From NCBI GenBank assembly GCA_963828255.1, contig CAWHDZ010000008.1, forward strand, positions 96,001 through 160,000: a DNA stretch of 64,000 nt, in the 5' to 3' direction. The DNA is from an uncultured delta proteobacterium. Lineage in GTDB: Bacteria > Myxococcota > Myxococcia > Myxococcales > Anaeromyxobacteraceae. The notes below the pieces were generated by a model. It saw nothing but the letters and a program-made list of their open reading frames with translations, was not told where the DNA came from and ran no database searches. Made by a program: the position numbers and the translations under genes. Below are positions 38,190 through 60,027 of this stretch, one piece after another; within the stretch, counting starts at the first letter, position 1; each line of letters starts with the position of its first letter.

Positions 38190-39380
38190 ATGGCGACACC
38201 ATTCGCGGACCGAGGCTCCCTTCGGCTGGTCAAGGGCTCCCTGCTGGCGGCGTTCCTCGCATCCGCCTGCTCCTCCTCCACCGGAACCAGCTACCTGGCG
38301 CAGTCCATCGCGGTGGCCGACCTGGACGGCGACGGCCGGCCCGACATCCTCTCCGCCATGGCCGCGGCCCCACCGCCGGGGTTCCTGAGCGCCCGCATCC
38401 AGGCGCCGGGGACACCGGGCACCTTCGCGAATCCGGTGCGGAGCCCGACCGGTGGCGATCCCGTGGCCATCGCCGTGGGGGACCTGGATGGCGACGGACT
38501 CCCCGACGTCGCCGTCGCCGATGCCGCCCCGGCGGCGGACGGCAGTCACGCATTGGATGTCCAGTTCCGGGTCGCGGGGACGCCGGGGGCCTTCTCCGCG
38601 CCGGTCGCGCTCCCCCTCGGAACGCTCACGCCGCGCGACCTCGCGCTCGCCGACCTGGACGCCGACGGCAGGCTCGACATCGCGGTGGCCGCGGCCGGTT
38701 CGAACGACGTCCAGGTGCTCTTCCAGCAGGCGCCGGGGACCTTCGCCGCTCCCGTCGGGTTCCCCGTCGGAGGAGGGCCCACCGCCGTCGCGGGCGCAGC
38801 GCTCGCCGGCACGGGTGGCACGGACCTCGTCGTCGTCACCGCCAGCGGGAAGCTCTCGGTCCTCGTCCGCGGGCCGACCCCGGGGACGTTCCTCCCCGCC
38901 GTGAGCTATGCGGCCGGGACGAGCCCGGCGGCCGTCCAGGTCGCCGACATGAACGGGGACCTCTTGCCGGACGTGGTCGTCGCCGGCTACGACGGGACGC
39001 TGCTGCTCTTCCTGCAGGCCCCGGCCGGCGAGGGCACCCTCCTGCCGCCGGTGGTGCACGACACCCTCGACTACGGCTCCTGCTCGATCGCCATCGGCGA
39101 CATCGACGGCGACGGCCGGCCCGACGTGGTGGTGGCGAACGCGGGCCCTCCGGGCTACCCGGGATCGGTTTCCGTGTTCATGCAGGATCACGGCGTTCCG
39201 GGGCAACTCGGACCGCCGGTGCGGTACCCGGGCTACTGGGGGCCGCTCTCGGTGGCGCTCGGCGACCTCGACGGCGACGGACTGCTCGACATGGCCGTGG
39301 CCGACGGGACCCCATACGTCCGCTTCCAGAGCACGGTGACGCCGGGGCTGTTCCTGCCCCCCACCTGGCTCAAGTTCTGA
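38190..39380 (+). CDS. FG-GAP/VCBS repeat lipoprotein
   Basis: Repeated DLDGDGRPD motifs; LASAC lipobox. Confidence 0.88.
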   Translation: MATPFADRGSLRLVKGSLLAAFLASACSSSTGTSYLAQSIAVADLDGDGRPDILSAMAAAPPPGFLSARIQAPGTPGTFANPVRSPTGGDPVAIAVGDLDGDGLPDVAVADAAPAADGSHALDVQFRVAGTPGAFSAPVALPLGTLTPRDLALADLDADGRLDIAVAAAGSNDVQVLFQQAPGTFAAPVGFPVGGGPTAVAGAALAGTGGTDLVVVTASGKLSVLVRGPTPGTFLPAVSYAAGTSPAAVQVADMNGDLLPDVVVAGYDGTLLLFLQAPAGEGTLLPPVVHDTLDYGSCSIAIGDIDGDGRPDVVVANAGPPGYPGSVSVFMQDHGVPGQLGPPVRYPGYWGPLSVALGDLDGDGLLDMAVADGTPYVRFQSTVTPGLFLPPTWLKF

Positions 39381-40254: not shown

Positions 40255-40582
40255 GTGAAGGGAAGGCCGTCGAGAAGGTTCTGGCGCTCACGGGTGGGAA
40301 GGGGGTGGACGTTGCCATCGAGGCGGTCGGAATCCTGGCGACGTTCGACGTGTGCCTGGACATCGTCGCGGCGGGGGGACACGTCGCCAACGTGGGCGTG
40401 CATGGCAAGCCCGTTTCCCTCAAGCTGGAGAAGCTCTGGATCCACAACGTCACGATCACGACGGGGCTCGTCGACACCAGCACGACGCCGATGCTGCTCA
40501 AGACCGTGGTGGCGGGTCGTCTCCAGCCGACGCGGACGCAGCGAAGGAGAAGGCGCTCAAGGTCATCATCCGGCGGGGGTGA
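40255..40582 (+). pseudogene. C-terminal fragment of a Zn-dependent alcohol dehydrogenase
   Basis: GVDVAIEAVG, ANVGVHGKP, ITTGLVD; ALKVII after an internal deletion. Confidence 0.75.
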
Positions 40583-40599
40583 CGTGGCGCGTTCCAACC

Positions 40600-40795
40600 G
40601 GGGACGAGGACGTAGGCGACGAGGTCCGGGTGCTGCCGGAGCGCGACGATGGCCTTCCGGGTGTCCCCGGTCCAGGTGCTCCCAGGTGTGGAGGGCGTCG
40701 ACGAAGACCACGTCCACGCCGTCCGCGAAAACCCGGGGCGCATCCGTCTCGAAGAAGGCGTCGCTGGTACGATCGAAGTACAGGACGCCGGGCTT
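40600..40795 (-). pseudogene. Fragment of a class I SAM methyltransferase (Methyltransf_24-like)
   Basis: TSDAFF..DVVFVDALHTWE joined out of frame to WTGDTRKAIVALR. Confidence 0.55.
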
Positions 40796-40897
40796 TAGAT
40801 ACGCACTGCCGTTCCCCCAGTATAGGCGGCTCTGTCCGGGGTGGCCCGCGTTGCGACGTGGTACACAGCCTTCTCGATCTCCTCAAAGGATTCCGCC

Positions 40898-41485
40898 ATG
40901 AAGCGTCTCGTCGCCGCAGCCGCTGCCCTCGCCACGCTCGCCACCACCGGGTGCGCCGGGATCACCGTCACCCAGCTCTGGCGGGATCCGGACTTCGCCT
41001 CCCGGCCGGGTACGCGCGTCTTCATCCTCGCCGCCATGGACAACAGCGCCAACCCCGCCCAGTTCGAGAATGCGATGGCCCAGGCGCTCCGGGCCAGGGG
41101 GTTCCAGGCAACGACGAACCTGGGCAACTTCCCCCCTGGCCGGATCAATCGGATGGCGATCCGGCAATACGTCGCCGAGAACCAGGTCGACCTGATCCTC
41201 ATGACGCGGCTCACCACCGAGCCCGCCACCCCGGTGGTCGTGACCAAGACGGCGGTTGTTTCCTCGGGCTGGCCCGGCAACTTCTCGAGCGTGGCGGGTT
41301 CCCAGACCATGGTCATCCAGGGCACCAACGTGAACGCCCGGGTCGAGGCCTTCGACGCCCGCACCGAACCCAACGCGCTCGTCTGGAGCGGCCAGTCGAA
41401 CACCGTCGACGTGCAGACCGCGCCGCAGTCGCTGGCGACAACGGTGGCGGCGGATCTCGTCGCGGCCCGGATCCTGGTCCGGTAG
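40898..41485 (+). CDS. Hypothetical lipoprotein (DUF4136-like)
   Basis: TTGC lipobox, WRDP, LVWSG. Confidence 0.7.
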   Translation: MKRLVAAAAALATLATTGCAGITVTQLWRDPDFASRPGTRVFILAAMDNSANPAQFENAMAQALRARGFQATTNLGNFPPGRINRMAIRQYVAENQVDLILMTRLTTEPATPVVVTKTAVVSSGWPGNFSSVAGSQTMVIQGTNVNARVEAFDARTEPNALVWSGQSNTVDVQTAPQSLATTVAADLVAARILVR

Positions 41486-41489
41486 CCGC

Positions 41490-41665
41490 CGCCAACCTCG
41501 GCCGCATCTTCGAGCCCTTCTTCACGACACGCAGAGGGGGCGAGGGCACGGGAACAGGCCTTGGCCTCGCGGTCTGCCAAGCCATCGTGGCCGCCCACGG
41601 CGGTGCGCTCACGGTCCAGGGCCAACTCGGCAAGGGTTCCACGTTTCGCATGGAACTACCGTCGG
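41490..41665 (+). pseudogene. HATPase_c C-terminal fragment
   Basis: RIFEPFFTT..GTGLGL..HGG..GKGSTF with no upstream gene body. Confidence 0.75.
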
Positions 41666-41696
41666 CACCGTTTCGGGGCCCCGCCGAAAGACAAGA

Positions 41697-41726
41697 GGCC
41701 CACCAGGATTTGCGTCCTGATGGGCC
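41697..41726 (-). terminator. Hairpin downstream of the tRNA fragment (second copy at 50205-50234 with U-tract)
   Basis: GGCCCA-CCAGGA...TCCTGA-TGGGCC stem; AAAA at 50201-50204 gives a U-tract on the minus strand. Confidence 0.7.
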
Positions 41727-41749
41727 GGTGTCGGCGCGAGTTGAAGAAG

Positions 41750-41791
41750 TGCCTGGACCCGGAATCGAACCAGGGACACGGGGATTTTCAG
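41750..41791 (-). tRNA. 3' half of tRNA-Phe(GAA) (att remnant, not a complete gene)
   Basis: Minus strand CTGAAAATCCCCGTGTCCCTGGTTCGATTCCGGGTCCAGGCA: anticodon loop, T-arm and acceptor strand; no 5' half. Confidence 0.88.
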
Positions 41792-41855
41792 GCCTGGTAC
41801 GGGAGTGGCCAAGGCCCCGGGATCCGCTGGAGAAACGGAGGAGGCGGGAGGGGGC

Positions 41856-41875
41856 TGAAGCACATTTGTGTCAGC
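41856..41875 (+). repeat. Candidate integrase arm-type site (pairs with 50101-50120)
   Basis: TGAAGCACATTTGTGTCAGC vs TGTAGCACATTTGTATCAGC, 18/20, one inside each element end. Confidence 0.7.
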
Positions 41876-41975
41876 CGGACGCGGGGAGCGAGGGGCAGCT
41901 GGACTTCGGGTTCGAGGACGACCGATGAGCCTCCGGGGTGACGAGAACTTCCGGTGGCACTATGCTTCCCCTGTC

Positions 41976-42242
41976 ATGAGCAGCACGGCCCGAAAGGATC
42001 TCCACGCGCTGGTGGACGCGCTTCCCGCAAGCGAGGAGCAGGCGGCGCGGCGCTACCTGGAATACCTGCGGGATGCGAGCGATCCGTACGCCAGCCTCGA
42101 CAGGGTCGACCCGTTCGTGGACATGCCCGACGACGAGCGTGCCAGGCTCCACGCCTCGCTCCAGCGGGCTGAGGAGGAGATCGCCTCCGGCGATTCGACC
42201 TCGGCCGAGGATCTCGTTCGCGAGCTCCGAGCGGCGCGGTGA
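41976..42242 (+). CDS. Putative antitoxin (in-frame alternative ATG at 41925)
   Basis: Acidic small ORF overlapping the downstream RelE/ParE gene (GTGA). Confidence 0.7.
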   Translation: MSSTARKDLHALVDALPASEEQAARRYLEYLRDASDPYASLDRVDPFVDMPDDERARLHASLQRAEEEIASGDSTSAEDLVRELRAAR

Positions 42243-42535
42243 AGGTCCAGATCTCGCCGACGGCGCGGCGGCAGATCGTCGCGCTGTCTGCCTGGTGGAA
42301 CGAGAATCGCAGGTCGGCCCGTGTTCGCGTCGAGGATGCGGTCGACGCGGCGGTCGGCGCCATGCGGGAGCATCCGGGGCTTGGGCCTGCCTACCCGCCG
42401 AACCCGAGGTACCGGACATGGCGGCTCAAGGGCACGCCCTACGTCCTCTTCTACCGAATCGACGATGCCGCGGGGACCATCTGGATCATGGTCGCGTGGA
42501 GCGCCATGAGGGGTTCGGGGCCCGAGTTGCCCTGA
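42239..42535 (+). CDS. RelE/ParE family toxin
   Basis: MKVQISPTARRQI, HPGLG, PYVLFYRI; 98 aa. Confidence 0.8.
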   Translation: MKVQISPTARRQIVALSAWWNENRRSARVRVEDAVDAAVGAMREHPGLGPAYPPNPRYRTWRLKGTPYVLFYRIDDAAGTIWIMVAWSAMRGSGPELP

Positions 42536-42596
42536 GTTGACGCTGATGTGCCACGACACATATTGATGCCCGGGCGCCATCACCCTGGAGGTCGTC

Positions 42597-42971
42597 GTGA
42601 GCCGCAAGTTCAAGGACTTCATCCGCGAGCTCGAGGAGGAGGCCCAGCGCGAGGGTCCCCAGGCCGTCGCCGAGCTCAAGGCGTTCGACGCGCACTTCCA
42701 GCTGGCCACCGAGTTCATCCTCCTTCGAAAGCAGCGCGGGCTCACGCAGCGACAGCTGTCGACAAAGTCGGGGGTCCAGCAAGCGGAGATCAGCCGAATC
42801 GAGGGCGGGCGCGCCAATCCGACGGTGTTCACCCTGTCCGCCCTCGCTTCGGCTCTCGGCGGGGAACTGGGAATCCGGATCCGTGCAGGCAGCCGCCGAC
42901 CGCGGTCCGTTCATGTGGCGCGAGGTCGTCACGCAGCACGGCAGCGACCGGTCGCGACCGGGGGGCGCTGA
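42597..42971 (+). CDS. XRE helix-turn-helix protein (orphan HigA-like antitoxin)
   Basis: RGLTQRQLS..VQQAEISRIEGGRANPT. Confidence 0.85.
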   Translation: MSRKFKDFIRELEEEAQREGPQAVAELKAFDAHFQLATEFILLRKQRGLTQRQLSTKSGVQQAEISRIEGGRANPTVFTLSALASALGGELGIRIRAGSRRPRSVHVARGRHAARQRPVATGGR

Positions 42972-43090
42972 CGGGAATCCGGGAAGGTCCTGGAGGAGGC
43001 CGAAACCCTGTATCTCGCTGCATGACGACGCGGGGCAGTGAGCCGCCGGGGTGATGCAAACATCCGGAGTGACACTATCCTTTCGGAGGC

Positions 43091-43180
43091 ATGGTCTTCG
43101 ACTGGCGCGAGCACATCACCGTCGACCCCGCGGTCCTCGTGAGCAATCCCGTCGTCCGCGGCATGCGGCTCTCGTCGGTT
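43091..43180 (+). pseudogene. DUF433 antitoxin N-terminal fragment
   Basis: GGAGG then MVFDWREHITVDPAVLVSNPVVRGMRL; similarity is lost after that. Confidence 0.6.
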
Positions 43181-43203
43181 GCCCCGGCACCTCCTCGACC
43201 ATG

Positions 43204-45549
43204 TTAGGGCGACCAGAAGTCCACCTCCAGGCCGAGCCTCTTGAGCATCGCGGTGTAGCGAGGGTCTCCGTGCACACCGCGGAGAAGGGGATCGACCTGA
43301 ATCATATTGAGGCCATTGTCGCGCGTTGCGAACGCGTGCTCCAGCCACTCGAACGCACGGTCGGCCTCTCCTCTCCACGCGTAAACCTGGGCGATCTGGT
43401 AAGCCGCTGTGTCTGGACGTTCGGCGATCAGGGTGTCGAGCGCCTCCTGCGATTCCCGGGCGCGCCTCAGGCCGTGGAGGGCCTCGGCGGTGCACGTGAG
43501 CGGGAGCGCCCTTCCGCTTTGCCTGGCTGCAAACGCCAGCGCCTCTTCGTTCAGGCCGTCCGCGACCAGTGACATGCACATGTACATGCTGGCCTCCACG
43601 TGACCGGGGCTGAGTTCGAGCGCGCGACCCAACGCCTCCCTGGCGTGAACGAAATCAGCGGCTGCCATGTACAGACGCCCCAGTATGACCAACCGATATG
43701 GATCGAGGGGGTCGCGGTCCACCCGCACCTTCCCGGAAGCGATCGACGCCTGGATCCGCTCGGCCCTGTTCAACTTCCTGGGGTCAGTTCCTGTGGCGCT
43801 GGCATCCTTCGGCCGGAGTTCGGCCGCTCTCGCGAAGTCGGCTTCCGAACCGGGCCTGTCGAAGGCGAAGTTCCAGCGCGCCAGCCCACGAATGCGGTAG
43901 CTCTGGGGGAGATCGGGCGCAAGCGCGACGGCCTTCTCGGCGGCTGCAAGTCCCCGCTCGACCATCCCGGGCTGGCCACCGTCCGCACGGAGGTCCATGG
44001 CTGCCTGGACGATTCCTGCCCATGCCGCCGCGTACCCGGGGTCGAGCGCCACCGCCTTCTCGAAGGCCGCCATGGCTCGCCAGTGGTCCTCCATGGTTCC
44101 GCGCTTCGCGAAGTGTCGCCCAAGAAGGAGCTGCGCATACGCTTCGGGCTTGTCGGTCCGGAGCCACCTCGCATTCTGGTCCTTGTCGGGGAGCAGGTTC
44201 ACCTGGAGTGCTGTAGCTACGGCCTGGGCGATGTCCTTCTGGATGGCGAGCAAACCTTCCTGGCCCCGATCGAATGCCTGCGACCACAGGTGCGCACCGT
44301 CCGCGGCGCGGATGAGCTGGGCGGAGATCCTGAGGACGCCCCCCTCCTTCCGCACGCTTCCCTCGAGCAGGGTCTCGACGTTGAGCTTCTGGCCAATGGC
44401 GCGGAGGTCGTCGGGCTTCCCCTTGAAGGAGAACGAGGAGGTTCGCCCGATCACCTTGAGCCCCTTCACCTGCGCGAGCGTGTTCAGGATCTCCTCGGCG
44501 ATCCCGTCCCCGAAGTATTCCAGGTCCTTCCCCGGACTCATGTCCACGAACGGCAGAACGGCAACGGACGGCTTGGTCTCGGCCCGAGCCGCGTCTGCTG
44601 AACGCCCCGCGCGATGTACGACCACGCCGACGACCACGCCACCGAGGACGACGCCGAGCCCCGCGAGCACCGCGACCCGACCCATGCGAGCTGGCCGCTC
44701 GGTGGCATGGCGCGCCTCCTGGAGGACCTCCAGCCACGCCTGACCATCTCTTGGGCGGGCCGCCGGGTCGGCGGAAGTGGCCAGGGCTATGGCTCGCTCC
44801 AGGCGTCGTGGGCGTCGCCCTCCGAGCATGTCGCCCAGCACTCGGCCTGCCGCGTACACGTCGGCCCGCTGGTCCACCTCCTCGCCCCGCGCCTGCTCCG
44901 GAGCCATGTACTTAGGGGTTCCGGCTCCGCTGATTCCCTCGGTGCCAAGCAGGTGCGCGAGCCCGAAGTCGAGGAGCTTCACCCTCCCGTCCTCGCAGAC
45001 GAACACGTTCGCGGGCTTGAGGTCCCGGTGCAGGACGCCTCGCTGGTGGGCGTGGGCGAGCCCCTTCGCCATCTCCTCGGCGATGCGCAGGGCCTCGGCC
45101 TGTGGGATCGGGCCTTCCGCGATGCGCTGCGCAAGCGTGTTCCCGTGCAGCAGTTCCATCACGAGGTAGGGACCGGCTTGGCTCGTTCCTACATCGTGAA
45201 GCGTTACGATGCAGGGGTGGTCCAGGCGCGCCACCGCCTCGGCTTCCTTCTTGATCCAGTCCGACGAGAGGTCTCGCCGAGGCCGGGACAGGCGTAGCGT
45301 CTTCACTGCCACGACCCGGTTCAACTCGGTGTCGAACGCCTCGTAGACCGCGCCGAAGCCTCCCCGCCCGACTTCGCGACGGATCTCGAAGCGGCCGAGC
45401 CGGTCGCCCGGCTGAAGCTCGTTCTTCCAGGCGTCGAGGGCGTCCTCACTGGAAGCATCGGCCAGTTCCTGGAGAAGTCGGGAGAGCGGGCCGGGCTCGC
45501 CGGCGCTCGACACGACCGCGCTGTCGCGCTGCTCCTGGCTCTCCGGCAA
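43204..45549 (-). CDS. Ser/Thr protein kinase with TM, TolB-like and TPR domains
   Basis: GRGGFG, VAVK, HRDLKPAN, DFG, APE; PSVAVLPF; TPR repeats. Confidence 0.92.
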   Translation of the reverse strand: MPESQEQRDSAVVSSAGEPGPLSRLLQELADASSEDALDAWKNELQPGDRLGRFEIRREVGRGGFGAVYEAFDTELNRVVAVKTLRLSRPRRDLSSDWIKKEAEAVARLDHPCIVTLHDVGTSQAGPYLVMELLHGNTLAQRIAEGPIPQAEALRIAEEMAKGLAHAHQRGVLHRDLKPANVFVCEDGRVKLLDFGLAHLLGTEGISGAGTPKYMAPEQARGEEVDQRADVYAAGRVLGDMLGGRRPRRLERAIALATSADPAARPRDGQAWLEVLQEARHATERPARMGRVAVLAGLGVVLGGVVVGVVVHRAGRSADAARAETKPSVAVLPFVDMSPGKDLEYFGDGIAEEILNTLAQVKGLKVIGRTSSFSFKGKPDDLRAIGQKLNVETLLEGSVRKEGGVLRISAQLIRAADGAHLWSQAFDRGQEGLLAIQKDIAQAVATALQVNLLPDKDQNARWLRTDKPEAYAQLLLGRHFAKRGTMEDHWRAMAAFEKAVALDPGYAAAWAGIVQAAMDLRADGGQPGMVERGLAAAEKAVALAPDLPQSYRIRGLARWNFAFDRPGSEADFARAAELRPKDASATGTDPRKLNRAERIQASIASGKVRVDRDPLDPYRLVILGRLYMAAADFVHAREALGRALELSPGHVEASMYMCMSLVADGLNEEALAFAARQSGRALPLTCTAEALHGLRRARESQEALDTLIAERPDTAAYQIAQVYAWRGEADRAFEWLEHAFATRDNGLNMIQVDPLLRGVHGDPRYTAMLKRLGLEVDFWSP

Positions 45550-45580
45550 GGCGAGCCCCCCAGGGGTGGTCCAAGGAGGC

Positions 45581-45619
45581 TAGCAGGGGGCCACCGAGGG
45601 TGTCATCCGCTCCACTGCC
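45581..45619. repeat. 39-bp direct repeat (38/39 with 47735-47773) flanking the serine hydrolase gene
   Basis: TAGCAGGGGGCCACCG(A/C)GGGTGTCATCCGCTCCACTGCC in both places. Confidence 0.9.
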
Positions 45620-45671
45620 AGGAGTTACCTGGAAGACGGTCCCGTCGAGTCTAGAACTCCAAGTCTCCCCC

Positions 45672-47558
45672 TCAACGCGGGCAGCGGAGCGAGCCAGGCA
45701 CGGTGCTCGCCTTGAGCGCGGTGGCCCGGCCAGTGAGCGGGTTCAGCTTCACGTCGAGGACGGCCTCGCCCCGCTGGCAGGTCAGGAGGAAGGTCCCGCG
45801 GGTGGTCCCGTCGCCCTTCAGCGATGAGCCAACGCTGCACGCGCCGTGGTTGGCCGAGAGGCGGGCCAGGTTCTTGCGGAGCGCCCCGGCGTCCGCACCC
45901 GGCTCGAGCAGCTTGGCGGCAGCACCGTCGTCCCACTGCTCCATCAACTGTGCCCCCTCGGCGGCCGCCCTGGTCAACGGCTCGCCGGGAGGGAGCACGG
46001 AGGCGAGCTCGAGCGCCTGGATCCGCGGCGGTAGGTCCGAGGTGAGCTCGATCGACAGTTCAATGCCCCCTCTCTCGCAGGTGAGCAGCAGCCGGCCGCG
46101 CAGGGCGTTCTGGGCCTTCCCGCCCTCCGCGGGCTTGCAGGTGCCGTGCACCCTGGCGAAGCCCGCCAGGCGAGCCTCGAGCCTGTCCGGCGCCTCGTAG
46201 GCAGAGTAGTTGACGTCGAAGGCAGCCGTCGCACGCTCGGCGTTCCAAGACGTCAGGAGGTCCAGGACCGTCGCACGCGCCCGGACGAGCTGGTCCGAGA
46301 TCGGCCGCGGCCGCTCCGGCAAGAGACCCCGCTCCCGCAGGCCGCTGACCAGGGCGTCCACGACGGGCCGGCCGTTGGTGTAGGTAAGGTTGGTCATCAC
46401 GAAGACGCCCACGTCCTGCTCGGGCAGGAGCAGCACGAACGAGCCGTAGCCCGGGAGCCCGCCACTGTGCCGGACCACCTTCGGGAACTTGCAGTTGGTT
46501 CCGGATCCCCAGCCGAAGCCGTATCCGCCGGCGTACACTTGCAGCTCCCCGAGGTCGTTGCGCGTGGCGGCGAATGGGATAGGACGCTGGACCTCCTGAG
46601 TCTCGCGGATCGAGGCGCGCCGCACCGGGCCGGTGTCCGGCTCGTCGCGCGGGGGCCAGGCCGACAGCTGGAACGCCACCCATCGCGCGTAGTCGCGAGG
46701 CGAGGTCCACAGGCCGCCAGCGGCGGCCCATGCTCCGTCGGACAGCTCCGGCTCCTCGTGGAAGGCGTCGTCGGCATACTTCTCCAGGCCGGCAGAGGGC
46801 ATGTCCGAGCCCCTCCGCCCGTAGCCGTGTGCCTTTCGCGCCTCCGGGACCCGGGCCGCCTCCCACGTCGTGGCGCTCATGCCGAGCGGCACCAGCAGGC
46901 GCTGGGTCACGTAGTCCTGGGCACGCACGCCGCTGGTGCGCCCGATCACCCGGCCGGCCAGCGCGTAGCCCAGATTGGAGTACTCGAACTCGGTGCCCGG
47001 CGCGGTGGAGAAGGAGAAGCCCGTCGCCAGGAAGCGGTCGAAGTCGGCCTCGCTCATCGAAACGCGCAGGTCGGCAGTGGCGTTGTCCTCGGGTAGACCG
47101 CCCCCGTGCGAGAGCAACTGGCGGACCGTGATGCGGGGCGAGTCGGTGGTGAGAGAGGCGACCTTTCGCAACTCCGGGAGGTATCGCTCGGCCGGGTCAT
47201 CCAGGGAGAACTTGCCCTCGTCGCGCAGCCCGAGCGCCGCCGCCCCGACGAAGGCCTTCGACATGGAGGCGATGCGGAACACCGTGTCCTGGTCCACGGG
47301 CGCGCCGCTGGTCAAGTCGCTCACTCCCCACGCCTTGAACCACGCCAGCTGGCCGCCGGTTACCAGGCCCACCGCCATGCCGGGCGCCTTCATGCCCGCC
47401 ACGGCCTTTGTCAGTGCCGGCTCCAGCTCGGTTGCCCCAGCGATCAGCCGGGCAGTTCGATCGGCGTCGCTCCAGGCCAACGGCGGAGCGGGGGAGCGCC
47501 GGGAGGAGGCCTGGGGCGAGGCACAGCCCAGACCGAGCGCCAGGAGAGCGAGGAGCAT
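45672..47558 (-). CDS. Beta-lactamase-family serine hydrolase, lipoprotein (start uncertain)
   Basis: SMSK (SxxK), YSN, HSG; LGLGC lipobox. Confidence 0.88.
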   Translation of the reverse strand: MLLALLALGLGCASPQASSRRSPAPPLAWSDADRTARLIAGATELEPALTKAVAGMKAPGMAVGLVTGGQLAWFKAWGVSDLTSGAPVDQDTVFRIASMSKAFVGAAALGLRDEGKFSLDDPAERYLPELRKVASLTTDSPRITVRQLLSHGGGLPEDNATADLRVSMSEADFDRFLATGFSFSTAPGTEFEYSNLGYALAGRVIGRTSGVRAQDYVTQRLLVPLGMSATTWEAARVPEARKAHGYGRRGSDMPSAGLEKYADDAFHEEPELSDGAWAAAGGLWTSPRDYARWVAFQLSAWPPRDEPDTGPVRRASIRETQEVQRPIPFAATRNDLGELQVYAGGYGFGWGSGTNCKFPKVVRHSGGLPGYGSFVLLLPEQDVGVFVMTNLTYTNGRPVVDALVSGLRERGLLPERPRPISDQLVRARATVLDLLTSWNAERATAAFDVNYSAYEAPDRLEARLAGFARVHGTCKPAEGGKAQNALRGRLLLTCERGGIELSIELTSDLPPRIQALELASVLPPGEPLTRAAAEGAQLMEQWDDGAAAKLLEPGADAGALRKNLARLSANHGACSVGSSLKGDGTTRGTFLLTCQRGEAVLDVKLNPLTGRATALKASTVPGSLRCPR

Positions 47559-47703
47559 GCTCGGCCGGCCGGGGTCACCTCGGGGTCTGGATGGTGGCGA
47601 GGACCGGGTCTTGCATACCCAGCTCGACTGCTCGAGATCACGCATGGTGACGATCCTCCGGCCATCGGGTTCCGGTGGGCGAAGCCTACCTGATCTCGGC
47701 GCC

Positions 47704-47817
47704 TCAGCATGACGCGCGCCCCGCCGCCTCTCCATAGCAGGGGGCCACCGCGGGTGTCATCCGCTCCACTGCCGCCAGGATGTCGGTGATGCGAAGGCGC
47801 CAGTCCCTAGGCGGCAC
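47704..47817 (-). pseudogene. Truncated HEPN/DUF86 toxin
   Basis: VPPRDWRLRITDILAAVER overlaps the MNT stop; no RxxxxH motif follows. Confidence 0.7.
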
Positions 47818-48097
47818 GGACCGCCTCGGACAGGATCTGCTGGCGCAGCTCCGGTCGAAGGCCGCCTTGCGTGACCAGGTCGACCTTGCAGCCCAGGAAG
47901 GCCTCGAGGCGATCCTGGACCTCGAAGAGGTGGAAGTAGCCGACCGGCGGGTCGAAGTCGACGAGCAGGTCGACGTCGCTTCCAGGGGCCGCCTGGTCGC
48001 GCGCCACGGAGCCGAACAGCGACAGGCTCCGGACTCCGAGCTCGCGGAGTTCCCCTGCGTGCTGGGCGATGATCTGGAGGACGTCGGCACGCCGCAT
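47807..48097 (-). CDS. Minimal nucleotidyltransferase (MNT antitoxin)
   Basis: FGSVAR...SDVDLLV (GSX10DXD), KVDLV. Confidence 0.9.
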   Translation of the reverse strand: MRRADVLQIIAQHAGELRELGVRSLSLFGSVARDQAAPGSDVDLLVDFDPPVGYFHLFEVQDRLEAFLGCKVDLVTQGGLRPELRQQILSEAVRAA

Positions 48098-48143
48098 GCG
48101 GGTCATCATAGGCCTCAGCCGTGTGACGGGCCAGGGTACCCAA

Positions 48144-48404
48144 CCCTGCCCTCGACCCCTGCCCTGCGGGGTGCCCTGCGGAGAGGGCAGGATTGAGGAC
48201 GAGGCGGCTGGCAGGATTGAAAGCAGGGCTGCCCTCGTAACCCCCCGAAACTCGTGCCCCGGCCCCGCCACCCTTCACCTGGCGTGCACACCGACGAACG
48301 GGGTGCCATCCGCCCGACCCCTCCCCCACGACCACCATGTGGGGAAGGGGTCGGCCGGCTGTCACCCAATGAGATTCCAGAGGGTGGATGGCGGGGCCAG
48401 GGCA
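48144..48404. other. Structured non-coding region with short repeats and nested inverted repeats
   Basis: GGCAGGATTGA x2, CCCTGCCCT x2; inverted repeats 48255-48270/48389-48404 and 48314-48329/48339-48354 (15/16 each). Confidence 0.6.
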
Positions 48405-48431
48405 AAGGGGCCGGAGGCGGCAGGGTCTGTG

Positions 48432-48460
48432 TTGCAAAGCACAAGATGTGTCTATACACT
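48432..48460 (+). promoter_or_regulatory. Sigma70-type promoter of the regulator-xis-int operon
   Basis: TTGCAA-N17-TACACT with palindrome CACA-AGA-TGTG in the spacer; AT-rich. Confidence 0.7.
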
Positions 48461-48512
48461 AGGATAGTCATAAGAAATACTCTCAAACAAGAATGAAGGC
48501 GAGGGGAACGAG

Positions 48513-48851
48513 ATGGCTTCGAAGAAGGCGCGGGAGAAGTCGGAGGCGTTCGAGACGACGGAGAAGGTGATGCAGACGTTCCGGATACCTCGGGAGCTCG
48601 TGGGGAGGCTCCGGGCAGAGGCGGACCGGAGGGGGCTCGATCTCACCGCCTACGTCATCCGGGTCATGGGGGGCGTCATCGGGGATTTCGGGCTGCCGGA
48701 GGTCGCGAGGGTCATCCTGGACGACGACCGCGCGGCGCTCGGCATGGACCGGGAGGCTTACCTCCTGCACCTGCTCTTCCAGCGGAGCCTCGCCGTCCGC
48801 GAAGAGGGGCCCGGGTTCGACGGCCCGAGGTCCCGGAAGAAGGGACGCTGA
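48513..48851 (+). CDS. Ribbon-helix-helix-like DNA-binding protein
   Basis: QTFRIPRELVGRLRAEADRRGLDLTAYV pattern. Confidence 0.6.
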   Translation: MASKKAREKSEAFETTEKVMQTFRIPRELVGRLRAEADRRGLDLTAYVIRVMGGVIGDFGLPEVARVILDDDRAALGMDREAYLLHLLFQRSLAVREEGPGFDGPRSRKKGR

Positions 48852-49228
48852 TGCTGGGCGAGGTCACCGAGTCGCGCCGCTTCGGCCTGGTCACGATGTG
48901 GGTCTCGGCGACCGACGTCCGCCGGGCCCTGGGCTGCTCGCGGGCACTGGCCTACGAGCATCTTCGTCGGGCGGCGCGGCGGTCACCGGGGGAGCGGGGC
49001 CTGCTCCGGGTCCCCCTCGACGTCTGGGAGCGTTACGCCAGGGAGGTGCTGTCGTGCAGCGGATCTTCAAGCGAGGCCGGGTCTGGTACGGGTGGTTCTA
49101 CGAGGACGGCCGGCGGGTGGTCCGGACCACCCGCTGCCGGGACCGCGCGGCGGCCGATAGGGTCGCCCGCCAGTGGGAGCTCGACGCCGCCGATCCGGAT
49201 CACGCGGCCGCGCGAACCGCGACGCTGA
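48851..49228 (+). CDS. Excisionase-like helix-turn-helix protein
   Basis: SATDVRRALGCSRALAYE...LRVP; coupled to the upstream stop and overlapping int. Confidence 0.55.
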   Translation: MLGEVTESRRFGLVTMWVSATDVRRALGCSRALAYEHLRRAARRSPGERGLLRVPLDVWERYAREVLSCSGSSSEAGSGTGGSTRTAGGWSGPPAAGTARRPIGSPASGSSTPPIRITRPREPRR

Positions 49229-50367
49229 CCGACGCGCTACAGCTCCTGCTCGCCCGGGACGAGGAGGAGGTCCAGGCCGGCCGGCGCAGCCCCGACACGG
49301 TCGCCTTCCACCGCTCCAAGGCAGGCCACCTGGTCCGCCTGTTCGAGACCGCCGACGGCGGCGGCCACGTCCCCTTCCCTCTCGTGCGGCTCCGCGCCGC
49401 GAACGTGGACGGCTACGTCTCCCGACGGCGCGCCGAGAAGGTGACCGACGCCACCATCGCGAAGGAGCTCGTCGTCCTCCGAAAGTCGCTCCGCCTGGCC
49501 ATCCGCGCCGGCCTGTGGAAGGGACGGGTCGAGGAGGTCATCCCGGTGGCCTTCTCGGCGGGCTACGAGCCCCGGACCCGCGCGCTCACGGCCGGCGAGG
49601 TGGGGAAGCTCCTCCACGAGCTCCTCCCGGACCGCGCCGCGAGGGTGGCCTTCATCGTCGCCACCTCGGCCTGCTGGCGGGAGTCGGAGCTGGCCCGACG
49701 CGAGGACACCGGCGAGGGGCTCGCGACCGTGCTCCTCCGCGGGACGAAGCGGAAGACGCGCTTCCGGACCGTGCCCATCGTGAGCCCCGCGCAGCGCTCG
49801 CTCCTCGAGTACGCGGTCGAGCACGCGCAGGGAACGGGCGGCGCGGTCTTCCGCGTCTGGCGCAACGCGCGGCGCGACCTCCTCGAGGCCTGCGAGCGGG
49901 CCGGCATCGAGCGCTGCAGCCCGAACGATCTCAGGCGCACCTTCGCAAGCTGGCAGGTGGAGGCGGGCGTGCCGCTCTACCCCATCGCGCAGGCCATGGG
50001 GCACAAGGACACGAGGATGCTGGAGCGGGTCTACGGCCGGCAGACCCCGGAGCAGCTCGCGGCGGTCATGGCGCGCGCGATGGGTTTGACGCAGGGCGTA
50101 TGTAGCACATTTGTATCAGCGCCCCCGGAAACGGCGGATCCGGTGGACGCAGTGGACGACGACGCGGCGAACGCGTCTCCGGCGGCCGCGACCGAAAAGC
50201 AAAAGGCCCACCAGGATTTGCGTCCTGATGGGCCGGTGTCGGCGCGAGTTGTAGAAGTGCCTGGACCCGGAATCGAACCAGGGACACGGGGATTTTCAGT
50301 CCCCTTATCAAGGACCTCAAGGCCGCGACTTCATGTGGTTTCTCCTCGGGTCAAGCGTGCCGGGTAG
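49054..50367 (+). CDS. Tyrosine recombinase/integrase whose ORF spans the att site
   Basis: GGAGG-GTG start; R (WRESEL), K (GTK), NDLRR, MGH, Y (RVYG); tail encodes the att as VPGPGIEPGTRGFS. Confidence 0.9.
   Translation: MQRIFKRGRVWYGWFYEDGRRVVRTTRCRDRAAADRVARQWELDAADPDHAAARTATLTDALQLLLARDEEEVQAGRRSPDTVAFHRSKAGHLVRLFETADGGGHVPFPLVRLRAANVDGYVSRRRAEKVTDATIAKELVVLRKSLRLAIRAGLWKGRVEEVIPVAFSAGYEPRTRALTAGEVGKLLHELLPDRAARVAFIVATSACWRESELARREDTGEGLATVLLRGTKRKTRFRTVPIVSPAQRSLLEYAVEHAQGTGGAVFRVWRNARRDLLEACERAGIERCSPNDLRRTFASWQVEAGVPLYPIAQAMGHKDTRMLERVYGRQTPEQLAAVMARAMGLTQGVCSTFVSAPPETADPVDAVDDDAANASPAAATEKQKAHQDLRPDGPVSARVVEVPGPGIEPGTRGFSVPLSRTSRPRLHVVSPRVKRAG
50258..50305 (-). tRNA. 3' part of tRNA-Phe(GAA) with full anticodon stem (att junction between elements 1 and 2)
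   Basis: Minus strand AGGGGA-CTGAAAA-TCCCC...GGTCCAGGCA; D-arm and 5' end absent. Confidence 0.88.
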
Positions 50368-50414
50368 CAAATGGGTAGCAAGCCCCTGCTTTGGGTCGTC
50401 CCCTTCCATCTACG

Positions 50415-53318
50415 TCACGACGTTTCCGGCAGCGCGAACTTGTCGAGTATCTCCCCCAGCCGGTTCGGCTCCTTGCAGACCATGAAGGCCCAGGTCCCGA
50501 ACCCGCCGTGGTGGTTCACGGCACGCACCCACTTCTCGGCCGCGGTGTACTTGGCGCGGTCCTGCTCCTTTTCCTGGCCCTTGATCTCCACGATGAGCGT
50601 GCTGTCGGGACCGTCAGGCATCGACAGGCGTACGAGGAAGTCGGGGATGTACTTGTGGGTCGCCCCCTCCCACTCGTAGAGGACCTCGAAGTCGAGACGG
50701 TCATTCTTCACGTACGCTTGGACGCGGTCGTTGTTCTCCAGGTGCCATGCAGCCTGGCCCTCGCCGAACTCCTGACTGTCCAGGACGACGTGGGAGACGT
50801 GGCTCTTCCAGGCTTCCTTGCATGGTTTCACCGTTCGGAACTGGACGTCGCCGGTGGACCCGGTCGGCCGGAACCTCTCGATGCGGGGCAGGATGGGTGC
50901 CTCACCGGCGCTGACGTCGGGCTCGATGGCATCCAGCAACCGTGAAACCACGTGGTCGCGGTACTTCGACAACGCGACCTCCTCCTTGTGGGCTCCCGGA
51001 GCGGTCTCGACTCGACGCTCCAGGTACTCCTCCACGATGCGAAGCACTTGGGGGAAGAGGAGCCTAGCACCCTCCTGGAGCTTCTTGGGAGGCGGCTCCA
51101 CGCCCGTCGTGACGTGGCCACCGGCCAGTACCTCGGTGATGTCCCGGGCGATCTCGAACGCGGTCCGTTGGAGCCGGTGCTCCGCGTAGAACTGGTCTCG
51201 CGTGAGTGTCTCCGCCTCGCCGGTGGTCGTCTTCGCCGCCGTCCGGGCTGGGGTCCATCCCATCTTGCTTCGCGTCACGACCTGCGTCGGCTCTATCTGC
51301 GGCTCAACCTTCAGCTCGGGGACCTTGTCCACGTCGCACCTGACCCGAGCGCGCACGTCCACGACGTACCCTTCGACGCGAGGGAAGGTAATCTCGTACC
51401 CCTTCCTCGACGGCAGGGCCTGGACGAGCGTGGAGGGTGGAAGCGTCGTCGGGTCGGCCGGGCGCACTCCCTTCACCGGGATGACCTCGAACGGGACCCC
51501 GAAGATGTCGGCGTACTCCGGTTGCAGCAGGCCCGTCGCCGGGTCCACGTCGTAGTTCATGCGCCGCAGCGCCCGTCCAACGACCTGCTCGCAGAGGAGC
51601 TGTGACGAGAATGCTCGCAGCCCGAGTATCTGGGTCACGTTCTGGGCGTCCCATCCCTCGGTCAGCATGCCCACCGACACGACGGCCCGGACATCCTTGC
51701 CCGGAGGCTCCTGCCCCTCGTAACCCTCGGGCGACTTGTCCCCTGGCCAGTGCGCCTTGCCGACGGTGGCCGTCTTGACGCGGAGCTTCTGGGCGGCGTC
51801 CTCCTTCGTGCCCCCTTCCTCGGCCTCGGCCTGGGCTAGGGCCTTCGAGTCGATGCGGAAGGAGTTGTCACCTGCGAGTTCCTTGATGATGTCCCCTCGT
51901 TTGAGCGATTCCTCGATGAGCTGTGACAGCGTGGTGTTGGCCGCGACCACGATGAGCGCAGGCGGCACCGGGTACTCGCACTTCTCGAAGTAGTCGAGCG
52001 TCTCCTTCCACTTCGCTGCGAGCGTGGCCAGCGCCGGCTGTGCCTCACGCCACACGGACTCCGGCTTCGCCCTCCGCTTCGAGGTCTCGCGCTCGGAGTC
52101 GGGGAGCTTGTCCATGATGTCCCGCCACAGGCGGAAGTACTTGGGGTCGGGACGCCCCGAGTCGTCAAGGACTGGGATGCGCGGGACCTTGCAGATGCCG
52201 GCCTCGATGGCGTCCACGAGCCCGTAGTCCGACACCACCCACGGCAGCGGGTCCCCCTCCGGGTAGCCCGTGCCCTTCAGGTAGAAGGGGGTCGCCGACA
52301 GGTCAACGACCACCTTCACGCCTCGCACTGCGTTGATGCGGTCGAGCCCACCGACCCACACCGTGGCCTCCTCGGCGAACTCCTCGGCCTCTCCCTTCTC
52401 CTCCGGGGCCAGGCCTTCGAGCTCCAGCTGGCCGTCGTCGTCTTCACGCAGCGCGGGCCGGTAGGCGTGATGCGCCTCGTCGTTCAAGACGAGCAACTCA
52501 CCGGACTTCCCCAGGTCTCGGTCTAGTACTCGACGCACGAAAGCTGCGTCGCTCTCCCTGCCCTTCTTCACCACGCCCCTCGTGCCGGTGTCATCCTTCA
52601 CGCCGAACACGTGCCAGTTGGTGATGTGTACTCGGCCGCGGGCCAGCATGTCGCGGTAGCCCACCGGGACGATGTCGAAGCTCTCGTAGTAGTTGCCCGC
52701 GAGCTGCGGCCGGAGCACCTGGAGGCGCTCCTTGACCGTGAGATTGGGGCACACCACCAGCACTGCGTCGGTGAACCGGCCATCCTGCTTGTTGGCCAGC
52801 TTGTTGAGGATGGACCAGGCCGCCACCATCGCCATCACGGTCGTCTTGCCCGACCCGGTCGCCATCTTGGTGCAGTAACGATGCAGCGCCTTGTAACCCT
52901 TCTTCAGGGACTCCGAGTCCACAGGCGGGTCGCCGGGGACCTCTATGCCCTGCCGGTCCGCTGGCGTGGCCTCCACGAGCCAGATGAGGGTCTCGGCGGC
53001 CTCCCGCTGGGCGAAGAAGAGCGGGCGCCGGTCGGGCCGGTGCCAGTGCTCCAGAAGGTCCCTGGTGACCGGCGTGACCCCGGGCCAGCGCCGTGCTCGC
53101 CACTCGTCCACCCGGTGACGCAGGTCGTTGACCAGCGGGAGCGGGAAGAACTCGTGCGATGCGAGGGCACCTGACACCTTCTCGGTCCTTGGGACGCCGA
53201 AGTACCCAGCCGCCCTCCGGCCGGAGACGACACGGGGCTCGGGGCCGGAGAAGTCGTAGTGCTGCTTCGGCTCCGAGAAGGGCGGGTTTAGGATGGGGTT
53301 CTCGACGGCGTTCGCCAT
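50415..53318 (-). CDS. res: Type III restriction enzyme Res subunit (BPTD_3080-like)
   Basis: MATGSGKT, DEAHH, SATP, EGWD, EQVVGRALRR, PDF..VEIKG. Confidence 0.9.
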   Translation of the reverse strand: MANAVENPILNPPFSEPKQHYDFSGPEPRVVSGRRAAGYFGVPRTEKVSGALASHEFFPLPLVNDLRHRVDEWRARRWPGVTPVTRDLLEHWHRPDRRPLFFAQREAAETLIWLVEATPADRQGIEVPGDPPVDSESLKKGYKALHRYCTKMATGSGKTTVMAMVAAWSILNKLANKQDGRFTDAVLVVCPNLTVKERLQVLRPQLAGNYYESFDIVPVGYRDMLARGRVHITNWHVFGVKDDTGTRGVVKKGRESDAAFVRRVLDRDLGKSGELLVLNDEAHHAYRPALREDDDGQLELEGLAPEEKGEAEEFAEEATVWVGGLDRINAVRGVKVVVDLSATPFYLKGTGYPEGDPLPWVVSDYGLVDAIEAGICKVPRIPVLDDSGRPDPKYFRLWRDIMDKLPDSERETSKRRAKPESVWREAQPALATLAAKWKETLDYFEKCEYPVPPALIVVAANTTLSQLIEESLKRGDIIKELAGDNSFRIDSKALAQAEAEEGGTKEDAAQKLRVKTATVGKAHWPGDKSPEGYEGQEPPGKDVRAVVSVGMLTEGWDAQNVTQILGLRAFSSQLLCEQVVGRALRRMNYDVDPATGLLQPEYADIFGVPFEVIPVKGVRPADPTTLPPSTLVQALPSRKGYEITFPRVEGYVVDVRARVRCDVDKVPELKVEPQIEPTQVVTRSKMGWTPARTAAKTTTGEAETLTRDQFYAEHRLQRTAFEIARDITEVLAGGHVTTGVEPPPKKLQEGARLLFPQVLRIVEEYLERRVETAPGAHKEEVALSKYRDHVVSRLLDAIEPDVSAGEAPILPRIERFRPTGSTGDVQFRTVKPCKEAWKSHVSHVVLDSQEFGEGQAAWHLENNDRVQAYVKNDRLDFEVLYEWEGATHKYIPDFLVRLSMPDGPDSTLIVEIKGQEKEQDRAKYTAAEKWVRAVNHHGGFGTWAFMVCKEPNRLGEILDKFALPETS

Positions 53319-53327
53319 GGTGGCTCC

Positions 53328-56261: not shown

Positions 56262-56402
56262 CGCACGGCATCCTACCCGGCCCAACGACAGGGAGTAGAC
56301 CGAAGGTACGGGTCGTCGGGGTGAATCTTGATCTGGCTCAGCCCCGATAGGGCCTGTCACCTTGGCGCGGATACATCGACCGGGGTCGGCGTTATTTGAC
56401 TC

Positions 56403-57134
56403 CTAGCATCGGTCCTGGGCCGGGCCGTCGGGAAACCACTCCGCAACCTGGACGCCGCCTTCCGTGAGCCGCGCCTTGGCGGCATCCACGGCCTCGGCGC
56501 AGATGTCGCTCCCCTCGAACCGGCGCCCGAGCCGCACAGCCGCGACCCCCACCGACCCCGACCCCATGAACGGATCGATCACCGTCTCGCCAATCTGGGT
56601 GCTCTGCCTGATGAGCACGTCGCTCACCTCCACCGGCTTTTCGGTGGGGTATCCCTTGTAGATCCGCGGGCACTCGATGATGTCCGCGATCCCGAGGTCG
56701 TTGAGCTTCCGCTTGCCCTTCTCGAAGAACAGGACGAACTCGTACCGGGAGCGGTAGTGGTAGCCCATGCCGATCCGTTTCTTGTCCCAGATGAGGGGCT
56801 TCCAGAACTTGAATCCAGCGGCCTCGGCCATCGACTTCGCCACGAAGGCCGTCTCGGGGTCGCAGAACAGGTAGAAGTGCCGGTTCTTACGTAGCACGCG
56901 GTAGATCTCGCGGAACAGCTCCGGGAAGCGGGCGTTGAGGAAGATCGCGAACCAGTCGTTGCTCGACGCCTTGCTGTGCTTGAGCCGTGTCGTGGTCCCG
57001 ATGGCGCGGTGCTTCTCCAGGGACTCGTACGGTGGATCCGTGACAACCAAGTCCACCGACACAGCCGGCATGCCGCGAAGCCACTCGACAGCGTCGAGCT
57101 GCGCGACGCGCGCTGCGGGAATCTGGTCGACCAT
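56403..57134 (-). CDS. Solitary N6/N4 DNA methyltransferase (beta class)
   Basis: DPPY, YPTEKP, DPFMGSGS. Confidence 0.9.
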   Translation of the reverse strand: MVDQIPAARVAQLDAVEWLRGMPAVSVDLVVTDPPYESLEKHRAIGTTTRLKHSKASSNDWFAIFLNARFPELFREIYRVLRKNRHFYLFCDPETAFVAKSMAEAAGFKFWKPLIWDKKRIGMGYHYRSRYEFVLFFEKGKRKLNDLGIADIIECPRIYKGYPTEKPVEVSDVLIRQSTQIGETVIDPFMGSGSVGVAAVRLGRRFEGSDICAEAVDAAKARLTEGGVQVAEWFPDGPAQDRC

Positions 57135-57422
57135 CTCCGCCCTTGTACCCTTTCGGACCGACACATACGCCCGTCAGAATCAGCGGCTTGTAGGCATCAC
57201 ATGGTGGCTACTGTCGGCGGGCTCCGAGAACCCCTGGCATGGGGGGCCGGCTGGTGCCTGGTTGAGGGTGTCGTTCGGCCATTTCCTCGTGAATAACGGC
57301 ATAAGGACTAGGTAGGAATCCCTGCCATCGCGCGCCATCTGGCACGCGGTTCATCCCCATCACCGCGGCGTACTCCATCTGGTTCATCGCCAGCGCGGGA
57401 GATATCCGCATCGAGGTTCTGC

Positions 57423-59036: not shown

Positions 59037-59134
59037 CCGTGCTGGAATCGTGTGTCTGGCGATGTCTACGGTCCTACCCACACGGTGGGACCACCGGTAC
59101 GCTCCAAGTCACGACGTCGAGGAGGGAAAACCGC

Positions 59135-59704: not shown

Positions 59705-60027
59705 CCCCAATCCGCATCGGCCGCCGCCGCTCCTCCGGACCCCTTCTCGGCGAGCTCGCCGGAACGGAGGAGCAACGTGCTGCCCGTCGGTCTCCTGAGT
59801 CGGGTCCTGCTGAAGAAGGTCATCATCGCCGCGCTTGTGGCGGCGGCGGAGGTCGTCATCTTGAGCGCGGGAAAGCGCAAGCGGTAGTCGAGGGGCGCGT
59901 CGTCATCACGGGGCGCGCCCCGTAGTTCTCCCAGCACAACCAGCAGTTCAACCAGGCAGGGCCCCAGCTCCACGCGAGCTTAGGGCCCTTGCCATTCATG
60001 GGCGCGTCCGCGCCCGAGGAGAGCAGC

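Follow-up and report, generated by a model that had tools for sequence, protein, structure and literature searches.

What becomes of a site-specific recombinase when the site at which it acts lies inside its own gene? The question is raised by a stretch of DNA from an uncultured delta proteobacterium of the Anaeromyxobacteraceae (assembly GCA_963828255.1, contig CAWHDZ010000008.1, positions 96,001 to 160,000 of the forward strand), in which a tyrosine integrase gene, int1, runs through the attachment (att) site of the integrative element that carries it. The window referred to below is this whole stretch of 64,000 nucleotides (nt), and coordinates are window positions unless they are prefixed by the handle of a locus or contig outside it (L003, G000 and so on). 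On balance we lean, by a little, towards the reading that int1 spans its own att and that excision swaps the last 22 residues of Int1 for a 45-residue tail ending in Q-L-x-[L/F]-x-F, a predicted binder of the β sliding clamp.

A sequence of 111 nt is directly repeated in the window (41684-41794 and 50192-50302); its two copies are 95% identical and lie 8508 base pairs (bp) apart. Repeat search and alignment agree on this distance, to which the preliminary description had drawn attention as a multiple of three (3 x 2836); the divisibility merely gives the same tail frame to an open reading frame (ORF) lying to the left of the left copy, and is no signal in itself. Each copy includes the 3′ half of tRNA-Phe in antisense, spanning the anticodon loop through the acceptor end and identical in the two (41750-41791, 50258-50299). 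These are the two matches to the tRNA-Phe half in the window, a number reached in 0 of 100 shuffles. Beyond the tRNA half, each copy has a 23-nt spacer and then a 12-bp hairpin (41697-41726 and 50205-50234) that is terminator-like, with a T-run, on the minus strand only, indicating that the hairpin is the terminator belonging to the tRNA. No whole tRNA was found in the window with ARAGORN; a third, shorter copy lies about 22.7 kb to the right on the same contig, outside the window, within an intact tRNA-Phe(GAA) on the minus strand. The locus is a tandem of two integrative elements inserted at tRNA-Phe, and the crossover falls in the anticodon loop. The array runs from chromosome with a histidine-kinase remnant through the displaced native tRNA half, element 1 and element 2 to the intact tRNA, and a tyrosine integrase gene stands at the end of each element, converging on the tRNA.

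41684..41794, no strand: left att copy, the distal junction of element 1, with the displaced tRNA-Phe 3′ half (minus), the spacer and the terminator hairpin (minus)
50192..50302, no strand: right att copy, the junction of element 1 and element 2, with the tRNA-Phe 3′ half and terminator hairpin; int1 reads through it
41795-50302, no strand: element 1, 8508 bp
50303 to the window end at 64000 and on to ~72995 (window-equivalent), no strand: element 2, reaching ~9 kb past the window to int2 and the intact tRNA-Phe
G000:C8, L003:1507-1580, minus strand: intact tRNA-Phe(GAA), from the genome search

Neither integrase gene stops before the tRNA sequence. int1 begins with a GTG at 49054, a start that matches the start position in homologues, and its first in-frame stop is at 50365-50367, with none before att; the read-through into the terminator and tRNA-Phe fragment that had been described earlier is borne out. 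int2 (L003:70-1569) likewise has no stop ahead of the tRNA fragment. The proteins match PF00589 with 41.3 bits (Int1) and 58.3 bits (Int2), the Pfam cut-off being 27.1, and are 36% identical over their full length, tails included. Invariant alignment columns include K232, R294/R295, H317 and Y327, with the ...CWRE... Arg conserved as well; judged by the family pattern, these columns would supply the catalytic Arg/Lys/Arg/His/Tyr.

Residues 1-415 of Int1 end on the last base common to both att copies. The current tail of 22 residues that follows (50299-50364) is encoded by the left end, or P′ arm, of element 2. The frame that enters through the left att copy instead gives 45 codons at 41791-41925 (GLVREW...GQLDFGFEDDR) and a stop at 41926-41928. 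Circularising element 1 would exchange the 22-residue tail for the 45 residues of its own P′ arm, and the arithmetic proposed beforehand, 415 + 45 = 460 amino acids (aa) in the circle and 437 aa in the current form with its tail from element 2, holds. The end of an integrase would report the state of its element: 22 aa at the tandem junction and a predicted 45 aa in the circle for Int1, and VPCSTS followed by a stop for Int2 at the intact tRNA.

49054..50367, plus strand: int1, tyrosine integrase, 437 aa as integrated; GTG start at 49054; PF00589
50299..50367, plus strand: present Int1 tail VPLSRTSRPRLHVVSPRVKRAG and stop, in the P′ arm of element 2; the TAG stop falls at the first GGGTAGCAA repeat
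41791..41928, plus strand: P′ arm of element 1, predicted circle-specific tail of 45 codons and a stop, in the int1 frame solely after att joining

Such tails could be accidents, functionless products of long read-through in DNA of 71% G+C. The G+C content at third codon positions (GC3) in the int1 frame is about 0.97 until about 50090, then about 0.7, and 0.4-0.5 in the tRNA part, where all three frames are open. In an AlphaFold model of Int1 the fold ends at about residue 345, and residues 346-437, whose coding sequence comprises P arm, terminator and tRNA fragment together with foreign DNA, have no secondary structure and a predicted local distance difference test (pLDDT) score near 32 (<50). 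The fall in GC3 at about 50090 supports a layout in which attP overlaps the 3′ end of int1; it also speaks for an accident, as does the finding that tails are unrelated between subfamilies.

The frame across the family argues the other way. A search with Int1 over 61 related genomes gave matches in 16, and at each of the 17 genome loci that include the 3′ end, the ORF takes the antisense tRNA in a single frame (...VPGxGIEPxTRGFS...). At these loci nine different lengths, from 52 to 94 aa, separate the catalytic Tyr from the tRNA peptide, and the frame is unchanged at the one locus that lies at tRNA-Asn and at the one that lies at another tRNA. Beside an intact tRNA the ORF always stops at the antisense D-arm TGA, as VPCST[S/D/I] or, for tRNA-Asn, as VRCSAN; the ending in the simple integrated state can be summarised as ...VPCST[S/D/I/N]. 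Databases hold 637 relatives at E <= 1e-20. Among the best 120 of these, 100 have a recognisable catalytic Tyr motif, and 84 of the 100 use the common frame (65 stop at the D-arm and 19 are longer-tailed), 3 use the second frame, 3 the third (one of them doubtful), and 10 lack the tRNA peptide, some being cut by contig ends. The roughly 6 in 100 that use another tRNA frame, within those best 120 of 637, again fit an accident, but a single frame across nine spacer lengths and three tRNA targets, kept by 84 of 100 homologues and followed by the conserved motif described below, does not, and we regard functionless read-through as very improbable. The caveat raised beforehand, that such read-through is common in GC-rich DNA, is right as far as codon bias goes but is outweighed by the conservation of the frame. 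Homologous integrases do not stop ahead of att, as the 17 of 17 loci and 84 of 100 homologues indicate, and the read-through design, itself already known from phage Mx8, is the rule for a large Myxococcota integrase family. A phage collection searched with Int1 returned distant mycobacteriophage-type integrases alone, none of which covered 80% of the query.

Two precedents had been named for a recombination site inside int. In Mx8, attP lies within int and integration yields a new 3′ end of the gene, as stated in a review of myxophages (PMC6070905) and in the Islander paper (PMC4383910), with which the Mx8 int sequence agrees. The Mx8 gene resembles int1 in that its ORF crosses a terminator hairpin and a tRNA-like acceptor and T arm, both in antisense, and the T-loop frame is shared (GLEP in Mx8, GIEP in Int1). 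Comparison of Mx8 Int with the family profile by hhalign (probability 94%, E 1e-7, 318 columns) marks it as a distant homologue, and pairwise BLAST of Int1 against Mx8 Int was not significant. The two differ in that Mx8 targets tRNA-Asp near the T arm and Int1 targets tRNA-Phe at the anticodon loop. In addition, no clamp-like motif was found in the Mx8 tail when it was read by eye for the pattern QL.[LF].?F. Mx8 Int has a phage form, IntP, and a prophage form, IntX, the latter reportedly less active in work ascribed to Magrini in 1999. In the integration-dependent immunity of mycobacteriophages, said to have been described by Broussard et al. in 2013, attP reportedly lies in an ORF and integration alters the C-terminus and the behaviour of the protein; that gene is a repressor, and the piece exchanged a degradation tag. 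Archaeal SSV1-type integrases, termed 'suicidal', also have the recombination site within the integrase gene, as the second precedent had it and a review (PMC8371274) states. Their integration fragments the gene and precludes integrase-mediated excision, whereas at int1 a disordered tail would be swapped and the catalytic part left whole.

The predicted circle-specific tail of Int1 ends in a short word that recurs in related elements.

41896..41913, plus strand: codons for QLDFGF, a clamp-binding-like motif, 4 residues ahead of the stop

P′ arm DNA was searched for in 363 genomes of the order (32 with matches) and a tail profile in 368 genomes of the class (42 with matches), and P′ arms were read in the frame fixed by the tRNA fragment, giving 26 copies from 20 genomes. 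In-frame Q-L-x-[L/F]-(x)-F endings are present in 17 of the 26 copies, from 12 genomes, in the variants QLDFGF, QLAFGF, QLSLF, QLTLRF, QLAFPF, QLALPF and QLGFRF; one further copy (G030), with an in-frame deletion of about 16 codons, retains QLSLF. Metagenome contigs were searched with a pattern that covers the crossover and a conserved DNA box and leaves the motif out. This found 42 loci, 29 of which have the motif in frame, adding QLPLF, QLGFGF, QLFFVF, QLELPL, QLDLRF and QMAFGF. Exhaustive searching of 1.84 billion representative proteins yielded 11 proteins, with a profile that includes the motif columns, so that the count is biased towards the motif; it is present in 10 of 10 new database proteins, adding QMDLPL, QLVFGF, QLALGF, QLDFRF and QLSLCL. 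Among 38 distinct tails, 35 have the motif 3-8 residues from the stop, and QLDFGF, the variant of the window, is the commonest (13 tails). Far from being unconserved, then, the tail has an ending that recurs in related P′ arms in a pattern pointing to selection on the peptide. The P′ arm pattern had no match among viral contigs, and a third protein search, for long integrases with a QLSLF-type tail, found none, which is weak evidence given its word-index method.

The tail DNA would have a second role, as part of attP.

50104..50120, plus strand: candidate P arm-type site AGCACATTTGTATCAGC, within the coding part of int1, 179 nt ahead of the crossover
41859..41875, plus strand: candidate P′ arm-type site AGCACATTTGTGTCAGC, repeating the site within int1, 68 nt past the crossover
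50362..50381, plus strand: candidate P′ arm-type site of element 2, GGGTAGCAAATGGGTAGCAA; an identical 20-mer lies in int2 at L003:1347-1366
41806..41825, plus strand: conserved DNA box TGGCCAAGGCCCCGGGATCC, 15 nt from the crossover, with invariant codons, rare ones included

The element 1 arm repeat, the 17-mer AGCACATTTGT[A/G]TCAGC at 50104 and 41859, has 2 matches in the window where 0.01 are expected, and for the 20-mer pair of element 2 (L003:1347 and window 50362) about 0 chance matches are expected. The internal sites of int1 and int2 coincide in the protein alignment. These repeats, one inside int and one past the crossover, are putative arm-type sites to which the integrase would bind. 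The attP of element 1 would span about 50100-50302 plus 41795-41912, and in both elements attP overlaps the 3′ end of int. The box TGGCCAAGGCCCCGGGATCC is nearly invariant in P′ arms that are otherwise about 70% alike; because its codons are invariant, even the rare ones, it is conserved at the DNA level, and it is probably a protein-binding site within attP.

Since part of the tail is evidently held at the DNA level, the motif too might be a by-product, its region being an outer attP site or a control region for the first cargo. Most of the tail is indeed clearly DNA-constrained, with its invariant box and arm site. Tail codons 6-10 (TGG CCA AGG CCC CGG) are invariant in 37-38 of the 38 distinct tails, the third base of codon 9 excepted (TGG 38, CCA 37, AGG 38, CGG 38). 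They include codons that are rare in a genome of 71% G+C, and third positions of the arm site are likewise fixed, which together indicate a DNA-level constraint there. The motif, in contrast, varies in its third positions and across whole Leu and Phe codon families where true DNA sites are invariant. In the same 38 tails, Q is CAG in 32 and CAA in 6, and the Leu at position 2 is CTG in 16, CTC in 18, TTG in 2, CTT in 1 and ATG in 1; six Leu or Phe codons are used at position 4, the last residue is TTC, TTT, CTC or CTT, and the x positions are freely variable. Pentamer and hexamer forms are both found, a length difference of 3 nt within the motif. DNA-constrained and peptide-like stretches adjoin one another in the same tail and so provide an internal control, and the pattern of conservation at the motif points to selection on the peptide. 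The openness of the frame points the same way: stops occur within the first 35 codons in 4 of 25 copies in the tail frame and in 13 and 15 of 25 in the other frames, which stop more often because the arm site holds a TGA or TAG out of frame.

The surroundings of the motif bear on the same alternative. Between element 1 and an element with different cargo, homology stops directly past the motif, which is thus kept beside unrelated cargo, and no sigma-70-like promoter was found in 41600-42100. On the other side, the next gene starts close by in many relatives and the antisense frame scores nearly as well as the tail frame. Taking these points together, we think conservation of the motif as DNA improbable. 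An antisense ORF across the motif was considered and rejected, as frame -1 closes at the arm site in 30 of the 38 tails and would have to run in from unrelated cargo, although the caveat from the BLOSUM62 scores given below stays. The next gene itself ([M/V]LGS...YELEFYED...PVLRWL) starts 9 nt past the tail stop in L052, L053, L085, L086, L091 and many metagenome loci; judged by the N-terminus typical of that family, it may encode a HigB/Gp49-like toxin. In the circle, with so short a gap, int, tail and that gene would make up a single unit spanning attP.

A peptide might also be made without int, as a product of about 20 residues started at the TTG of the arm site (MCQPDAGSEGQLDFGFEDDR) in any state of the element. 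The TTG is present in nearly all copies with purine-rich DNA ahead of it, and 3 copies that are frameshifted upstream retain the motif. But the TTG lies within a DNA-constrained site, so that its conservation is uninformative on a start, and one copy has TGG; the frame is continuous with int in 17 of 20 motif-bearing genome copies, and seven natural integrase ORFs are joined to the tail. We give an independent micro-ORF a very slight probability, smaller still than that of functionless read-through.

If the motif is selected as the end of an integrase, what would it bind? The clamp consensus is Q-L-S-L-F/L, with Q1 and L4 most conserved, and the motif is often on flexible C-termini, according to PMC3971601. 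Clamp-binding words take the form Q-L-[S/D]-L-F or, as hexamers, Q-L-x-L-x-[L/F]. Relatives of the Int1 tail include QLSLF, QLPLF, QLALPF and QLDLRF, and across the 38 distinct tails Q never varies and L or F occupies position 4. The pattern occurs 41 times in the 8.6 million six-frame residues of the window's genome, and in the last 16 residues of 3 of its 52,903 stop-to-stop segments, one of which is the element 1 tail. MutS and Pol IV are textbook clamp clients, and QLGLF is present in this genome's MutS and Pol IV-type polymerase, which serve as positive controls. In a natural long form of the integrase (P0025, 481 aa) the model is disordered after residue 349, with pLDDT <50 for residues 350-481. 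The predicted circle tail of the element 1 lineage bears a conserved, C-terminal, clamp-type motif, and this motif is predicted to bind the β sliding clamp. The resemblance of QLDFGF to the clamp motif, proposed at the outset, stands in that relatives have the exact QLSLF and the ending is conserved; it falls short in that F at position 4 is off-consensus. Elsewhere in the genome, a radical-SAM protein ends in ...RRQLALFPGG (G000:C15, L110) and a DUF72 protein has SQLDLF close to its N-terminus (G000:C7, L112); both are possible further clamp clients, judged by these words.

The isoform switch could also operate as in Mx8 with no clamp involved, the motif being recognised by the integrase itself, by a directionality factor or by a protease adaptor, or only determining how long the tail is. 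Neither the conserved frame nor the likeness to Mx8 depends on the clamp, motif-less subfamilies still read through, and the window variant has F at position 4. Nevertheless, the conserved positions are those of the clamp consensus, exact QLSLF occurs in many relatives, known clamp clients of this genome share the word as QLGLF, and the motif is close to the end of a disordered tail. A switch without the clamp is therefore, in our judgement, rather unlikely.

Several observations weigh against a clamp-binding circle tail. The variant of the window is off-consensus, F replacing the strongly conserved L at position 4, and GC3 gives no coding signal in the tail. The motif is confined to one P′ arm lineage, the tails of other subfamilies, element 2 included, being without it. 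Among the 26 genome copies it is out of frame in 3 and absent in 6, and 13 of the 42 metagenome loci are without it in frame (a single motif-less lineage accounts for 4, an early stop for 3 and a frameshift for 2; of the rest, 1 has a weak QLSLDW, 1 differs in some other way, and 2 are recombinant or cut by a contig end). Many copies are closely related or come from one sampling campaign, so that the counts are not independent. The antisense frame, with its shared third positions, comes near the tail frame on BLOSUM62 (2.85 vs 2.89 for hexamers, 3.83 vs 4.23 for pentamers), and the arm-site TTG could start a separate 20-codon ORF. Finally, Logan contigs of sediment and wetland metagenomes, which are short unitigs, showed no 50299-to-41792 back-joint and no clean 8508-nt skip over 41000-51000. 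One odd joint, from 41522 to 50192 in a single contig, is not what att recombination would give.

Joined forms do occur in nature. Seven ORFs fuse the integrase catalytic region in frame to an element-1-type tail (G010:C22, P0025, P0124, P0130, P0133, P0135 and the metagenomic L125, which ends in ...GQLSLFMDDE), records in which an origin from a circle and from a tandem array are indistinguishable. P0124 and P0130 are Int2-like enzymes with an element-1-type tail, indicating that the tail passes between integrases in arrays; the window shows the reverse order, Int1 carrying the motif-less tail of element 2. Another locus, G139:C107, has two P′ arms 3.3 kb apart (41554 and 44902; L109, L081) with a decayed integrase 3′ end between them, and looks like a tandem of very small elements.

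How might a clamp-binding tail act? An element-1-type P′ arm keeps the frame open beyond the arm site and closes it with the motif. The long form would be made solely by the excised circle, or by a tandem junction that places the same P′ arm behind int. Its flexible tail could tether the integrase to clamps on replicating DNA and so favour integration, and integration would then strip the hook and leave a shorter form, by analogy with Mx8 and its reportedly less active IntX. We rate as evenly balanced the fuller proposal that the integrase is hooked to the clamp only while the element is an excised circle, that recombination attaches and detaches the hook, and that arrays pass it to the upstream integrase. 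That one recombinase is biased towards integration after entry and towards quiescence once the element is inserted is usually explained by directionality factors distinct from it. At int1, as in Mx8, recombination itself would alter the end of the enzyme, and comparison across relatives points to a specific partner for the tail of the free form.

We know of no earlier link between a tyrosine integrase and the sliding clamp, and among the papers listed by literature searches none described a tyrosine integrase bearing such a motif, which does not disprove that one exists elsewhere. If the clamp is confirmed as the partner, this would be the first such link known to us. Transposases of nine insertion sequence (IS) families and of Tn7 bind the clamp through the motif, as stated in PMC3971601. 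The likeness, to Tn7 TnsE and those IS transposases, is that of a recombinase with a short Q-L-S-L-F/L-type motif linking movement to replication (PMC3971601); the difference is that their motif is permanent, whereas Int1 is a tyrosine integrase whose motif would be gained and lost by recombination. If the reading of Int1 is true, the replication coupling of Tn7 and many insertion sequences would extend to site-specific integration. For annotation, integrase C-termini would report the state of the element, in a family that is abundant in Myxococcota metagenomes.

The remainder of element 1 is cargo.

41976-42242, plus strand: 88-aa ORF without a Pfam match, first cargo of element 1, overlapping the next gene
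42239-42535, plus strand: ParE-family toxin gene, also first cargo, overlapping the 88-aa ORF
43204-45549, minus strand: Ser/Thr protein kinase with TPR repeats, from a domain match
45672-47735, minus strand: beta-lactamase-fold protein, from a domain match

A 39-nt direct repeat, 97% identical, brackets the beta-lactamase-fold gene (45581-45619 and 47735-47773), and one metagenome contig (run X3) connects 45580 to 47735, omitting the intervening 2154 nt. This gene may be a cassette that some genomes carry and others lack. In element 2, the cargo in the region 50415-60783 comprises a ResIII helicase-like protein of 967 aa, one end of which is a TnsA-like endonuclease, along with an N6/N4 DNA methylase, a DUF932 protein and a Rad52-like protein.

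To the left of the array, the ORF that runs into the left att copy (region 40255-41700) matches just the final half of HATPase_c, at 41488-41664. Upstream of 41485 the GC3 signal is in another frame, and the ORF there (40841-41485) has no kinase domain. Near 41485, the histidine-kinase gene on the side of the displaced tRNA half seems to be interrupted or frameshifted. We considered whether the left-hand ORF could be a complete histidine kinase with the tail as its true C-terminus and rejected this, given half a HATPase_c in frame and the shift of the GC3 frame at about 41485.

The assembly has two similar dnaN-recF loci (G000:C10:16506-17621 and C6:32614-33729); together with a contamination figure of 6.6%, they indicate that the window's genome is probably a bin of two close strains. 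Further left in the window, the ORF at 38190-39380 holds six copies of a 42-nt repeat (38304-39290), spaced 153-294 nt apart and encoding a D-x-D-G-D-G-type repeat.

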